Assembly (NCBI GenBank): GCA_035498875.1
Contig: DATJZP010000052.1
Coordinates: 21,823 to 85,822 of the forward strand
DNA: 64,000 nt
Direction of reading: 5' to 3'
Origin: Myxococcota bacterium
GTDB taxonomy: Bacteria > Myxococcota_A > UBA9160 > SZUA-336
Part shown: positions 18,001 through 24,000 of the stretch, one piece after another
Numbering within the stretch: the first letter of the stretch is position 1
Layout of the letters: each line of letters begins with the position of its first letter
Made by a program: the position numbers

Positions 18001-21000
18001 CGGGATAGAATCGCAGCATGACTTCGGAAGCGAGCCCCGCAGAGCCCGACCTCTGGCTGCGCGACGACCTGGCGGACTTCGAGCAGCGCCCGGTCAGCTT
18101 GCTCGAGAAGACCAAGCTCGTGTTCGTGGCAGGCAGCGGGCCGGCCGTGATCGTGATGTCGGAGATGCCCGGCATCTACGCGGGAGTGTCTCGCTTCGCG
18201 CGCAAGGTGCGGGACACCGGCTTCACGGTCTGGATGCCGCAGCTGTTCGGCGAGCCGGGCCGACCGCCGACCATGGGCTACGGCCTGCGCAGCATGGTGA
18301 TGGGCTGCATCAGCCGTGAGTTCCGCGCCTTCGCCGCCAACGAGTCGAGCCCGGTCACCGCCTGGCTGCGGGCGCTGGCCGCGCACGCGCATCCGCTCTG
18401 CGGCGGGAAAGGCGTCGGCGCGATCGGCATGTGCTTCACCGGGAACTTCGCGCTCTCGATGATGCTCGAGCCCGCCATGCGCGCGCCCGTGCTGTCACAG
18501 CCCTCGCTCCCGCTCTTCCAGGCCGGCGGCATGCACATCGCCCCCGACGAGCTCGAGCGGGTGAAGAAGAGACTCGAGCGCGATGACCTGACCGTGCGCG
18601 CCTACCGCTTCGCGGGTGACCCGTTCTGCAAGGCCGCGCGCTTCGAGGCCTACCAGCAGGCGCTCGGCCCGCGCTTCGAGGGGCGCGTGCTGCCGGATGA
18701 GTGCGCGCGCAAGGGCACGCCGATGCGGCCGCACAGCGTGGTGACCATGCACCTCGTCGACCGCGAGGGCGAGCCCACACGCGCCGCGCTGGACGAGATC
18801 CTCGGGTTCTTCGCCGAGCGACTGCGCGACTAGGACATGCGCAGCGCGAGCAGCCGCGCCGCGAACACCGCCCACATCAGGAAGATCAAGAGCGCCCCCG
18901 CCGCGTAGGCGTAGAAGCGGTGCACCACGGTGTTGTAGGTGATGTGGATCGTGCTGTGCAGCGCGCGCAGCGCGACGAAGATCCAGGCCGCGATCACGAA
19001 GAATGGAGTCACCTGGTCGGACGCCGCGAGACACGCGCACAGCACGTAGAACAGGACCGGCACCTCGAACAGGTTCTTGAAGTTGTCGGCCGCCTCGACG
19101 CGCTTCAGCACGCCCGCGCCCAGCACGCTGTTGCGAACGGTCTGCGGGTCGAGCCGCAGCTCGCGCATCTCGGCGACCCGATCGAGATATAGCTTCACCC
19201 AGACCACGAAGGTCAGCAGCACCATCGCGGCGCAGGGCAGCAGGATGTCGACCTTGCCCACCAAGGTCACTCGCCCAGCACCGCGGCGACGAACTGCTGA
19301 CAGCGCTGGTTCGCGGAGCGGGCCAGCGAGGTCGGGAACAGGTTGAAGCCGTGCACGCCGCCCGGATAGATCGCGAGCTCGGCGCGGCTTCCGGCCACCG
19401 CCCAGCGCGCCGACATGAACAGGCTGTCGTCGAGCAGCGGGTCCAGCGTGCCCACCGTGAACAGCGCCGGCGGCAGGCTGCGCAGGTCGGCGTAGAGCGG
19501 GGAGGCGTCGGTGGTCGCGCGCTGCGCGCGGTCGGGCAGGAAGTGATTGCTGAACCACTCGATGATCGGCGTCGAGAGCACGAGGTTCCGCTCGCCCCAG
19601 TTGCGCACGCTGGGCGTGAACGTGGCGTCGTACAGGCCGTACACCAGGTTCGCGCCGCGGAACGGAGTCACATGGTGGCGGTCGCGCAGGCGCAGAAGCG
19701 TGACCGCCGAGAGGTGCGCGCCCGCCGACTCACCGCCGATCGCCAGCCGCTCGCTGCCGAACTCACGCTTGGCGTTCTCGAGCAGCCACAGCGCTGCCGC
19801 CTCGCAGTCGTCCGGGCCGGCGGGATAGGGATGCTCCGGGGCCAGCCGATAGCCCACGCTCACCGCCACCGCGCCGGCCGCGTTCGCCAGCGCGTCGAGC
19901 ATCACGTCCTGTGCGTCGTGACTGCCGAGCGTGTGGCCGCCGCCGTGGATGTGGAAGTAGACGCCGCGCAGCTCACCCTTCGGCCGGATCACGCGCAGCG
20001 GCAGCTCGCCCGCCGGCCCGCGAATCGACCGGTCGACGGCGTGCGGTAGCCGCACGATCGGTCCGAACGTCCCCTGCCCCGACTCGCGCGCCGCCCGGAT
20101 CGCCTGCGGCGTCTGCGTGTGGATGGCCGGCACCTGCGCCAGCAGCTTCTCGAGTGTCTCGTTCGCCGCGCGCGTCTCTGGATCGATCGCCTCCGGCGCG
20201 AACAGCTTCGGGTCGAGCGTCATCGGTGCCGTCCTCCCGTTTCCAAGTCTACTGCAACCCCGATCGCGCGATGCAAGACGCGGCCGAAGTGGTACGCTCG
20301 GATTCGGTGGGGCGGTGGTTCTCGTCGTCGCTGTTGCTGATGTGGCTGCTGGCGTTCGGCGGGAAGCCCCTGCACGCGGCGTCGCTCTCGAGCACCTGGC
20401 TCGGCGGCTCAGGATCGTGGAGTGATCCCGCCCGGTGGAGCGACGGCGTCCCCCAGAACACCGCGAGTGACTCGTTCCAGGCTGCGGTCGATGGCGGAAA
20501 TCCGCTGGCCTCGGCAGTCGGGATCGACGGCGGCGTCGTGGTCGATTCGCTGACGATCGACCCTGGAGATCGGGTGACGATTGCCGCATCCGGGAGCCTC
20601 TCCGCGCAGCTCGTCGAGGGCGGCGGAGAAATCGACAACCTGGGCATGCTGGGCGCGAGCGGCGGGCACACGCTCGGCACGGGACAGCTGGTGGTGCAGA
20701 ACGCCGGCGGCGTGATCCAGCTCGACGGCGGACACTGGAGCTCGAGCGACCAGACCAACGTCATCGGCGGCGACTTCGTCGCCGAGAACGGCAGCACCGC
20801 GATCGTCTCGGCCACCTTCTCGGGCACCCGCCTCAGCGCGGACGCCACGAGCAGCGTCACGCTCGGAGGCGGCCTCAGCGACGTCACTTTCGCGACGGGT
20901 CACTTCACGCTGAGCGGCCGCGTCTCCGGCGCGCTCGTGAACTCGGCAGTGCTGGAAGGGGCACTCATCCTGGACGGGCCCGCGACGATCGAGAACCACG

Positions 21001-24000
21001 GCCAGATCATCGTCACCTACGACGAGAGCAGCAGCCTCACGCTGTCCGGCGGCGGCGCGGTCACCTACCAGACGGGGAGCGACGTTCCCAGCCCCACCAC
21101 CTTCACCAATCTCGACAACCAGATCCGGGGCTCGGGCCGGATCCGCCTGGCGAGCAACGCCGGGCCGATCGACGCGACCGGCGGGCTGCTCGACGTGTTC
21201 GGAAATCCGACCGTGCAGCACGACGGGATCTTCGGAGCAGCTCCCGGCGGGACGCTGCAAGTTCGCGACGTGACCGGCGGTGGCTCGTGGAGCGCGCATG
21301 GTGGGACGATCCATGCGCTCGGCAACGTTGCGACCAGCGGCGACATCTCCGTGACCGACGGCGGGTCACTGATCGTCGATACCTCGATGACCGGCCGCAA
21401 CCTCACGATCGACTCCACCGGGACGCTCGACATCGAGGGCGCGCTGCGACTCGCCGGGAACGTCGAGCTCGACGGTTCCGCGGGCGGACGCTTCGTGTTC
21501 GGCCCCGGCGCGTCATTCGAGGCCGCCCACGGCGGAGGCGCGGCGGTCGGTGACTGGGCCAACTGGCAGTTCGTCGAGGTGGCCGGGCGAGATCTCGGAG
21601 ACGACCCGACGGCGTTTCGCACCACGAACGCCTATCTGCCCGAGCTCGTGATCGGTCCCGACGGCCGGCTCTTCTTCGAGGATCACGCCGACAACGGGAA
21701 CCGCCAGCCGGGCGTCGCCGAAGCCATCTACGTCGACACCCTGGTCTTCGACGACGCCCAGGGCCTGCTCGACCTGAACGGCATCCGGCTCTTCTACAAC
21801 CACCTGGTCGGCAGCGCGAGTCAGATCATCGACGTGGCGGTGCCGGAGCCAAGCGCACTCGTGCTCGCAACGCTGGCACTGACAAGTCTGGGCGTTCGCC
21901 GCCGGTCAAGTACAGCCGCGCAGTAGGTACAGCACGATCAGCACCGGGATCGGGACGCCGATCAGCCACAGCACGAGCCAGCCGACCTTTCCGCTCTGGT
22001 CATTGAGCTGCATACCGCTCGCTTCAGCAAGGCACGTGCCGTGCGGGAAGAGCCGCGCGCGCGCCGGCCGGGCGCGGGCGTGCAACTTGTTCACTCCGCT
22101 AGGCGGCGCGGCGGGCGCGGACGAGCAGCAGCAGCGGGCGGCCGAGATACTTCCGGGCGAGCGGGACGTCGGCGACCAGGCGCGCGTCGCCGAGATACTC
22201 GTGAGTCTCGAGCGACTCGAAGCCTGCGTCGGCGATGCCGTTCAGATAGTCGTCGACGCGGTACGGCTCGGCGCCGAGCCGATACTCGGTGCCGTCGGCC
22301 TCGAAGTTGGCCTCGATGCCCGAGCGCGCGAGCTCGGGGTGGAAGGCCGAGAACACCAGCCGTCCGCCGCGGCGCAGCGCGGCGAAGGCCTCGCCGAAGA
22401 AGCGCGGCAGGTCGCGCAGATGCTCGGAGACCAGCGAGGACAGCAGCGCGTCGAACGAGCCCGGGCGGATCGGCAGCGCTTCGTTCAGGTCGGCCTGCGC
22501 CAGCCCGGCGCCGGGCGCGCTGCGCTGCGCGACGCGCAGCATGCCGCGCGAGAAGTCGAGGCCCACGGCGCGCGTGCGCGCTTCGCACAAGCGCGCCAGG
22601 TGCGCGCCCGTGCCGCAGCCGGCGTCGAGCACGGCCTCGCCGGCGCGCGGCGCGAGCGCGCCGAAGGTGACTCGCCGGTCGAGCGCAACCAGCGGGTTGG
22701 GCGTCGCGTCGTAGCTGTGAGACCAGCGGTCGTAGCCCTCGCGCACGCCCGGCCGCTCGACCCGCTTCGTCATGCCGCGGAAGCTAGCATGAGCTAACCC
22801 TTCGCCGGATGGGTCTCTGCTGGCGTCTGCTCGCGGGCTTCGTGGGAGTGATGTGCCTCGGCGCCTCGGCCGCCCGGGCCGAGACACCGGCGCATCCGAA
22901 CATCGTCTTCATCATGACCGAGGACATGAATCCCCGGCTCGGCGCGTACGGTGACCCGATCGCGCGCACGCCGCGCATCGACCGGCTGGCGCGCGAGAGC
23001 GTGCGCTTCACGAACGCGTTCACCACCGCGCCGGTCTGCGCGCCGAGCCGCGCGGCGCTGATCACGGGGCTGTACGCGCAGTCGTTCGGCGCCCAGCACA
23101 TGCGCACCTCGCGCGCCTGGGACGAGCAGGGCAACAGCAAGACCTTCGAGTATCTCGCGGTGCCGCCGCCCGAAGTGAAGGCCTTCCCGGAGCTCTTGCG
23201 CCGCGCCGGTTGGTTCACCAGCAACCACCGCAAGACCGACTACCAGTTCGGCGACCCGTTCACGGTCTGGGACACGTTCGCGCCCGAGGCGATGATCGGC
23301 GGCTGGCGGGGCGCCGCACCGGATCAGCCGTTCTTCGCGATGATCAACCCCGAGATCACCCATGAAGGCATGATCTGGCCGCCGCGCACGCCCGAAGAGG
23401 CTGCGAAGCGCCCGCAGGTCACCGACCCGAACAGCGTGGTGCTCTCGCCCTTCATCCCCGACACACCGGTGACTCGCCTCGACCTCGCGAGGCACTACGA
23501 CAACATCGCCACGCTCGATGGACAGGTCGGCGCGATCCTCGACGCGCTGCAGGCCGACGGCCTGCTCGACCACACGATCGTGATCTTCACCGCCGACCAC
23601 GGCGACGGCTTGCCGCACGCCAAGCGCAACCTGTACGACTGGGGCCTGCACGTGCCGCTGCTCGTGCGCTTTCCCGACGGCCGCGATGCGGGGACGGTGC
23701 GCACCGACCTGGTCAGCTTCATCGACCTGGCGCCGACGATCCTGCGGCTGGCCGGCGTCGCAGTGCCGAGCGAGATGCGCGGTCAGGTGTTCCTGGGACC
23801 CGAGCGCGCGCCCGATCGCAGCTACGCATTCGCCGCCGCCGACCGGATGGAGAAGATCCCGAGCTATTGGCGCAGCGCGCGCGACCTGCACTTCCAGTAT
23901 CTCGCGAATCACATGCCCGAGCGCCCGCTGTTCGAGCCGCTCAAGTTCCGCGACATCATGCCCACGATGCAGGAGCTGTGGCGCCTGCACGCCGGCCACC

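Follow-up and report, generated by a model that had tools for sequence, protein, structure and literature searches.

Proteins that carry a PEP-CTERM sorting signal are abundant in soil and sediment bacteria, and their processing by exosortases is still poorly characterized; to our knowledge, almost no such protein has a known structure or role. Here, we analyze a gene of this kind in a 64,000-nucleotide stretch of contig DATJZP010000052.1 (positions 21,823 to 85,822 of the forward strand, assembly GCA_035498875.1, Myxococcota bacterium), which as a whole is referred to as the window. The gene lies at 20271–21926 on the plus strand, stop codon included, and is a genuine gene for a secreted, 551-amino-acid (aa) beta-helix protein with a PEP-CTERM-type tail. 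An earlier, sequence-only reading of the window had described a textbook PEP-CTERM protein with a low-complexity, repetitive and probably beta-helical body behind a spurious N-terminal extension. The analysis presented here upholds what it said about the tail, about the fold and about the extension being false, but not the words textbook and repetitive.

Results

Gene start and signal peptide

The mechanical open reading frame (ORF) in the frame of this gene spans 19911–21926 (plus strand) and terminates in VPEPSALVLATLALTSLGVRRRSSTAAQ, which is identical to the C-terminus quoted in the sequence-only reading. The ATG at 20271 lies 120 codons inside this ORF, and the question is which portion of it is coding. 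GC content by codon position is a good coding test here because the window is ~70% GC. From the ATG to the stop codon, GC at the first, second and third codon positions (GC1/GC2/GC3) is 0.67/0.53/0.87, a coding pattern like that of other window genes. In the same frame, the upstream portion at 19911–20270 (plus strand) gives 0.73/0.87/0.54, the signature of DNA that is antisense to the esterase gene at 19267–20223 (minus strand). The 120-codon extension, which consists mostly of antisense of this gene, is therefore spurious, as had been proposed. The start at 20271 also agrees with an independent gene call on European Nucleotide Archive (ENA) contig k141_4039972 (23.9 kb; ERZ27256511), in which a 551-aa product begins at the same ATG and carries a single E-to-D difference. 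GTG codons at 20289 and 20307 are possible alternative true starts, and their only effect would be a shorter n-region in the signal peptide. A promoter search found no sigma-70-like site, and the sole terminator-like site falls within the gene.

The false extension hid a predicted signal peptide, which had likewise been suspected and which is borne out by a hydrophobic segment and by an aligned AxA-type site in homologs. Residues 1–36 (20271–20378, plus strand) would comprise an n-region with R9 and R15, the h-region FSSSLLLMWLLAF and a predicted cleavage site between LHA and AS. The hydrophobic 15-mer that starts at residue 17 has a mean Kyte–Doolittle hydropathy (KD) of 1.61, and AlphaFold2 (AF2) places a helix at residues 17–29. 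Among orthologs, A36, A37 and the stretch S41-T-W-L-G-G are invariant, and homologs carry AxA followed by A at the aligned site. No transmembrane (TM) segment was predicted between the signal peptide and the tail by heuristic hydropathy and AF2, and the only other 15-mer with KD ≥1.6, at residue 220, sits in a confidently predicted beta-strand region. The predicted mature protein opens with an N-terminal module (N-module) at residues 37–100 (20379–20570, plus strand), which was recognized from conserved columns and a segment hidden Markov model (HMM) and follows the pattern STWLGG.G.W.D...WS.GVPQN...DGGN. This module holds most of the columns that are invariant at the ortholog alignment's N-terminal end.

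The C-terminal tail

PEP-CTERM signals are defined by a PEP motif, a hydrophobic helix and a basic cluster at the extreme C-terminus (Haft et al. 2006, PMC1569441). All three are found in residues 523–551 (21837–21923, plus strand). The motif V524-P525-E526-P527 places PEP at 21843–21851 and is followed by the hydrophobic helix S528–V542 (21852–21896), whose 15 residues have the highest mean KD in the protein (1.96) and fall within a helix predicted by AF2 at residues 527–550. The basic cluster R543-R544-R545 (21897–21905) is then followed by SSTAAQ, the six residues before the stop codon.

However, the features of the tail, although complete and conserved, do not lift it over the thresholds of the curated models. 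Pfam PF07589 aligned over model positions 1–24 of 24 and scored 18.0 bits, short of its gathering score of 20.7 (E 0.0031), and TIGR02595, the check put forward in the sequence-only reading, was run and did not accept the tail (7.7 bits against a cut-off of 16). Taken over the 24,736 models searched, the PF07589 E-value would correspond to a per-model p of about 1e-7. PF07589 detected only 22% of PEP-CTERM instances, and PEP-CTERM tails show greater similarity within than between species (Haft et al. 2006, PMC1569441).

How, then, can a real signal be told from a chance resemblance? The rationale for accepting the tail as a real PEP-CTERM-type signal is based on its conservation pattern, on homologs that pass the curated cut-offs and on a background check with a family tail HMM. 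Across 30 relatives, P, E and P are kept in 30, 27 and 29, respectively, V precedes PEP in 24 of 29, and R is the commonest residue at the basic-cluster columns (16/30, 21/30 and 21/29), while the TM positions vary in sequence yet remain hydrophobic. P525-E526-P527 is invariant in five orthologs, in which L532 is the only invariant residue of the helix. In two more distant homologs that align along their full length, the corresponding tail position clears both curated cut-offs (P0014, 28.0 bits with Pfam and 21.4 with TIGR02595; P0045, 26.3 and 25.0), and a further homolog, P0023, passes the PF07589 cut-off. The family tail HMM was trained on 70 distant relatives, with near-orthologs excluded, and was scored against 558 six-frame ORFs of the window; the tail of the target received 20.2 bits (E 1.4e-5) and the runner-up ORF 4.5 bits. 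Moreover, a pattern scan of all six-frame window ORFs returned the target as the sole PEP/TM/basic C-terminus. The tail is not a chance match.

A different question is whether the helix is merely a membrane anchor, in which case the protein would be tail-anchored in the inner membrane and face the periplasm, no exosortase would process it and the resemblance to PEP-CTERM would be functionless. The scores below both cut-offs are in keeping with such an anchor, as is the lack of an exosortase in the available sequence (the 64-kb window and ~9 kb to its right). However, the retention of P-E-P in nearly all of the 30 relatives while the remainder of the tail drifts points to a recognition site, and P0014 and P0045 do pass the curated models. 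In other relatives, the conserved module that precedes the tail bears other recognized sorting-type ends, such as VPLPA-like ones, and a beta-helix rod of ~500 residues is typical of surface rather than periplasmic proteins. Taken together, these observations make a functionless resemblance quite improbable.

The body of the protein

AF2 modeling with five sequences gave a confident all-beta core and a poor C-terminal third. With 30 relatives in the alignment, the mean predicted local distance difference test score (pLDDT) was 90.0 and the predicted template modeling score (pTM) was 0.83, and short, regular strands run between residues 38 and 513. In this model the body folds as a single right-handed parallel beta-helix rod with N- and C-terminal modules, in agreement with the beta-helical body that had been anticipated. 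The beta-helix core at residues 101–399 (20571–21467, plus strand) is followed by a conserved C-terminal module (C-module) at residues 400–522 (21468–21836, plus strand), which was recognized from family conservation and from AF2 (pLDDT about 90–98 with the 30-sequence alignment). The C-module follows the pattern GGGAA.GDW..WQ..E..G.DLG ... YLPELVIG.DGRL...D..DNGNR...EA.YVDTL.F.D..GLL.LNG..LYYN.LVGS..QIID, and no other part of the family is as well conserved; the residues invariant in the 30 relatives are E436, L459, D471, N475 and L491.

The composition of the protein sets it apart from its neighbors. G, S, T and D together account for 41.0% of residues, compared with 23.8 ± 3.6% (maximum 35%) in the 62 other window proteins, and the description of the body as G/S/T/D-rich is therefore accurate. 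Lys is at 0.2%, Arg at 3.8% and Cys at 0, and Ser, Thr and Asn are all elevated. Haft et al. (2006, PMC1569441) described PEP-CTERM proteins as a class with fewer basic residues, very low Cys and raised Thr, Ser and Asn, and the Ser/Thr/Asn-rich, Lys/Cys-poor composition of the target is that of PEP-CTERM proteins generally.

The low-complexity repeats that had been ascribed to the body could not be found at the sequence level. Tandem Repeats Finder reported just one trivial 23-nt array, self-BLAST of the protein and of two orthologs revealed no internal repeat at E≤1, and local entropy is 3.2–3.7 bits against 3.60 ± 0.21 for the window. Nothing directly backs the heavily glycosylated or exopolysaccharide (EPS)-associated character that had been suggested, as the protein has no Ser/Thr-rich linker and the window has no EPS gene. 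GGG occurs five times, compared with an estimated two or so expected from the glycine content, and three of the occurrences (117–119, 260–262 and, through G422–G423, 421–423) coincide entirely or mostly with positions that are invariant in the family, a pattern that suits conserved turns rather than simple sequence. In the predicted model, repetition would be structural only, in the form of the rungs of the beta-helix.

What might such a rod do? No Pfam or NCBIfam family matched the body, and a profile search against PDB sequences returned nothing at E≤1. One hypothesis is that the beta-helix is a polysaccharide-active enzyme (a lyase, glycosidase or epimerase) that is held at the surface or in the matrix by its PEP-CTERM tail and remodels EPS. 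This is an unlikely role given that no beta-helix enzyme family in Pfam or NCBIfam matched even at E≤10, that every one of the best structural matches is a non-enzymatic adhesin passenger, that the helix core (101–399) has no invariant charged residue across the 30 relatives, and that no EPS genes lie nearby.

An alternative hypothesis is that the protein is a type V secreted adhesin, of the autotransporter or two-partner kind, that merely resembles a PEP-CTERM protein. The beta-helices of autotransporter passengers (pertactin, 2iou; Pet, 4om9; Vag8, 7akv; UpaB, 6bea; TibA, 4q1q; Ag43, 7koh) share only 9–15% identity with the target. The target has neither a C-terminal beta-barrel translocator nor an N-terminal two-partner secretion (TPS) domain, no match to Autotransporter, Pertactin, PATR or Haemagg_act was obtained in Pfam at E≤10 or in NCBIfam, and no TpsB or BamA-like gene is adjacent. 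Instead, the protein terminates in a single TM helix, and in place of a translocator the PEP-CTERM tail would serve anchoring and export. Because the translocator and TPS domains are missing, type V secretion is effectively refuted.

A large family with interchangeable ends

A word-indexed search found just five close proteins. With an exhaustive profile search, the number of cluster representatives came to 3,650 at E≤1e-3, of which 418 were at E≤1e-30 (clusters counted at 50% identity, about 3,650 in the family). A scan with the family alignment of contigs from 185,579 species representatives found no relative. Source labels of the relatives read either hypothetical protein or PEP-CTERM sorting domain-containing protein, and labeled relatives come from Planctomycetota, Thermodesulfobacteriota and Gammaproteobacteria. 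Many members are large, multi-module beta-helix proteins of Planctomycetota and other phyla with PEP-CTERM or dockerin ends (for example, P0179 of Phycisphaeraceae bacterium D3-23). These have the N-module, the beta-helix modules and often the C-module in common with the target, and they measure 1,000–3,500 aa and contain as many as 14 matched stretches. The window protein represents this arrangement in minimal form.

Tail and module counts cover the top 153 relatives. The N-module HMM matches 109 of them, and 101 of these matches lie within the first 120 aa. The C-module is found in 67. A strict PEP/hydrophobic/basic tail is present in at least 76, the strict pattern missing several more, and dockerin-like ends are present in about 20. 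Directly after the C-module, the 67 relatives that possess it show PEP in 35, variants of the VPLPA/VPVPA/VPAPS type in 8 and dockerin-like ends in 9, and one variant tail is a weak match to the VPLPA-CTERM model. Since the same C-module is followed by PEP, variant or dockerin-like ends, the tail behaves as a swappable sorting module. The target is a compact new member of a very large uncurated family of known PEP-CTERM kind.

Chromosomal slot and divergence

The divergent neighbor of the gene is the esterase gene at 19267–20223 (minus strand), an alpha/beta-hydrolase assigned to Abhydrolase_3 / BD-FAE from the Pfam families in the ENA gene call. Its product is 83–85% identical in the related soil contigs L002, L006 and L011, where the slot beside the Abhydrolase_3 gene is also occupied by the ortholog, and the L004 ortholog has methyltransferase and sulfatase genes on its flanks just like the target. 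Four orthologs found by the word-indexed search are 44–51% identical to the target, and in the comparison of the syntenic contigs this protein is 45–52% identical, compared with 66–93% for flanking proteins. Moreover, the window protein is ~90 residues, or roughly four rungs, shorter than all four close orthologs, with the gap after about residue 123. The identity far below that of the neighbors, a tandem paralog and the loss of ~90 residues fit an exposed, fast-evolving protein.

Two related contigs carry additional genes of this kind. The 198-kb soil contig L002 has a tandem duplication of the family (8069–9955 and 10001–11866), and both copies have VPEP/TM/RR tails. The 16-kb soil contig L003 encodes three PEP-CTERM-type proteins, namely the ortholog (5790–7694), an adjacent 215-aa protein above the Pfam cut-off (7779–8426; 25.6 bits) and a 197-aa protein that ends in FPEPGAAALIFATLVGLGAARRSARLG (13290–13883, minus strand), as well as a tyrosine recombinase gene (14872–16017).

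Around the target, the window encodes esterases, a MAPEG protein, methyltransferases, a sulfatase and a cassette of carbamoyltransferase, DUF5989 and GDSL genes. The cassette lies just downstream and is conserved in three relatives (24690–29119 in the window, 12095–16540 in L002 and 12131–16527 in L006); it comprises a 114-aa protein with two TM segments, a NodU/CmcH-type carbamoyltransferase, a 54-aa DUF5989 protein, a GDSL/SGNH hydrolase and a class-I methyltransferase, and the window has an additional sulfatase insertion beside it at 22809–24455. Because the whole neighborhood is syntenic among close relatives, the adjacency of the target to this cassette is uninformative. A hydrophobic 35-aa ORF (MQLNDQSGKVGWLVLWLIGVPIPVLIVLYLLRGCT) at 21906–22013 (minus strand), which is called as a gene in the ENA contig, extends over the final 21 nt of the target gene. 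No counterpart is called in L002, and in L004 the flanking genes are only about 60 nt apart at this point.

Elsewhere in the window, most genes are metabolic, alongside an extracytoplasmic function (ECF) sigma factor and efflux systems; no tRNA genes were found in the window. HemE of the window is 84% identical to that of a metagenome-assembled genome (MAG) labeled uncultured delta proteobacterium (MFD10007.bin.2.43), 75% to that of a Myxococcota MAG and ≤47% to others. Three further loci were recorded. A 671-aa protein encoded at 41494–43509 (minus strand) is an unusual fusion of an ABC-transporter ATPase (residues 25–163) with Trp_halogenase / FAD_binding_3 (268–620), and its gene adjoins those of a BPD_transp_1 permease and an NMT1-like binding protein. 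At 52551–53771 (minus strand), a 406-aa protein joins Lum_binding (riboflavin-synthase-like) and DHBP_synthase domains (Pfam families in L094), the usual pairing being DHBP synthase with GTP cyclohydrolase II. The segment 12345–15755 (minus strand) encodes three predicted lipoprotein-like or secreted proteins of 615, 209 and 198 aa with no family match, with a Cupin_2 gene between the 615- and 209-aa proteins; the 209- and 198-aa proteins are 43–50% identical in L002.

Exosortase and the cell envelope

The co-occurrence of PEP-CTERM proteins and exosortase in genomes is established (Haft et al. 2006, PMC1569441). Further PEP-CTERM proteins on the related contigs are the best indirect evidence and, by this rule, would imply an exosortase in the lineage. 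Where might it be encoded? None of 11 related loci recovered by a metagenome scan has an exosortase, and neither a Prs regulator nor an EPS gene was found in the related loci. Several candidate genes were considered and rejected. The multi-TM candidates of locus L008 turned out to be HpnN, a hopanoid transporter, and a TPR protein. A 470-aa protein with ~6 TM segments at 3674–5086 of the window (minus strand) gives no indication that it is an exosortase and has no match in Pfam (E≤0.001) or NCBIfam (E≤0.01). The gene just upstream of the ortholog in L003, which has the look of a FemAB/GNAT-type PEP-CTERM-associated protein, has no NCBIfam match. The window also contains a gene for an OEP outer-membrane efflux protein (E 3.7e-41), as well as Lnt, MacAB and RND genes, and the organism is therefore diderm, with an outer membrane.

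Discussion

The features resolved here allow for a model in which the target is probably a Sec-exported protein of ~515 mature residues that forms a single right-handed beta-helix rod with N- and C-modules and carries a PEP-CTERM-type sorting signal. The signal peptide (residues 1–36) would drive export and then be cleaved. The helix at 528–542 and the RRR stop-transfer cluster would retain the protein in the inner membrane, and the predicted topology would place VPEP at the periplasmic face. An exosortase of the EpsH/Xrt family encoded elsewhere would then cut at PEP and send the protein on its way to the outer surface or the matrix, a step proposed solely because of the established co-occurrence of PEP-CTERM proteins and exosortases. 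At the surface, the beta-helix may act as a non-enzymatic adhesin or matrix scaffold, like the passengers of autotransporters, a role suggested by the similarity of the fold and the fast divergence of the target.

Several observations weigh against this model. The tail falls under the curated cut-offs of both PF07589 and TIGR02595, and the tails of the closest orthologs are also below them, with scores lower than that of the target or no match at all. No exosortase, EPS or Prs gene was found among the scanned genes of the 64-kb window or in the ~9 kb annotated to its right (L094). The window holds just one PEP-CTERM-type protein; the related contigs L002 and L003 hold more. Foldseek against the PDB returned no significant match, which leaves similarity of fold as the basis for an adhesin role, and the signal peptide is a heuristic prediction whose cleavage site was placed by eye.

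How does the target compare with characterized systems? It is like other members of the PEP-CTERM/exosortase system (PMC1569441; TIGR02595, PF07589) in its predicted signal peptide, in the lack of an internal TM segment, in the succession of VPEP, helix and Arg cluster, in composition, in its diderm soil host and in a body without a Pfam family, which is typical of the class. It differs from them in the sub-threshold scores of its tail, in the lack of an exosortase/EPS locus in the available sequence and in being the single such protein in 64 kb. PepA, the flocculation-associated PEP-CTERM protein of Aquincola (NF033554, PMC9850573), is likewise a secreted protein of small to medium size with a PEP-CTERM tail and a role in the matrix or aggregation, a role which for the target is only suggested; however, the bodies of the two proteins are dissimilar and only the tail regions align. 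A neighbor of the ortholog in L003 shows a weak resemblance to PepA (30.4 bits against a cut-off of 80).

The current understanding of PEP-CTERM sorting is unchanged by these results, and their value lies in annotation and in a compact, 551-aa representative for experiments. They add a confidently predicted structural assignment, in which an autotransporter-like beta-helix rod would sit on a PEP-CTERM tail instead of a beta-barrel, and they place the body in a very large family without a curated model. They also show that mechanical ORF calls in 70% GC DNA can mask a signal peptide and that curated PEP-CTERM models can overlook real members in this lineage. We tentatively hypothesize, as one possibility that we hold to be less likely than its negation, that the combination of N-module, beta-helix and C-module (~125 residues; E436...D471-x-x-D-N-G-N-R...QIID) may mark out a very large unmodeled family of bacterial surface rods (~3,650 clusters with no Pfam, NCBIfam or PDB relative) that are fitted with interchangeable tags, whether PEP-CTERM, VPLPA-like, other TM or dockerin-like. 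The soil member studied here, which occupies a fixed slot and diverges rapidly, with rung deletions and a tandem duplication, might then be, in place of a generic matrix protein, a variable determinant of recognition or adhesion, or a protein on which phages or predators exert pressure.

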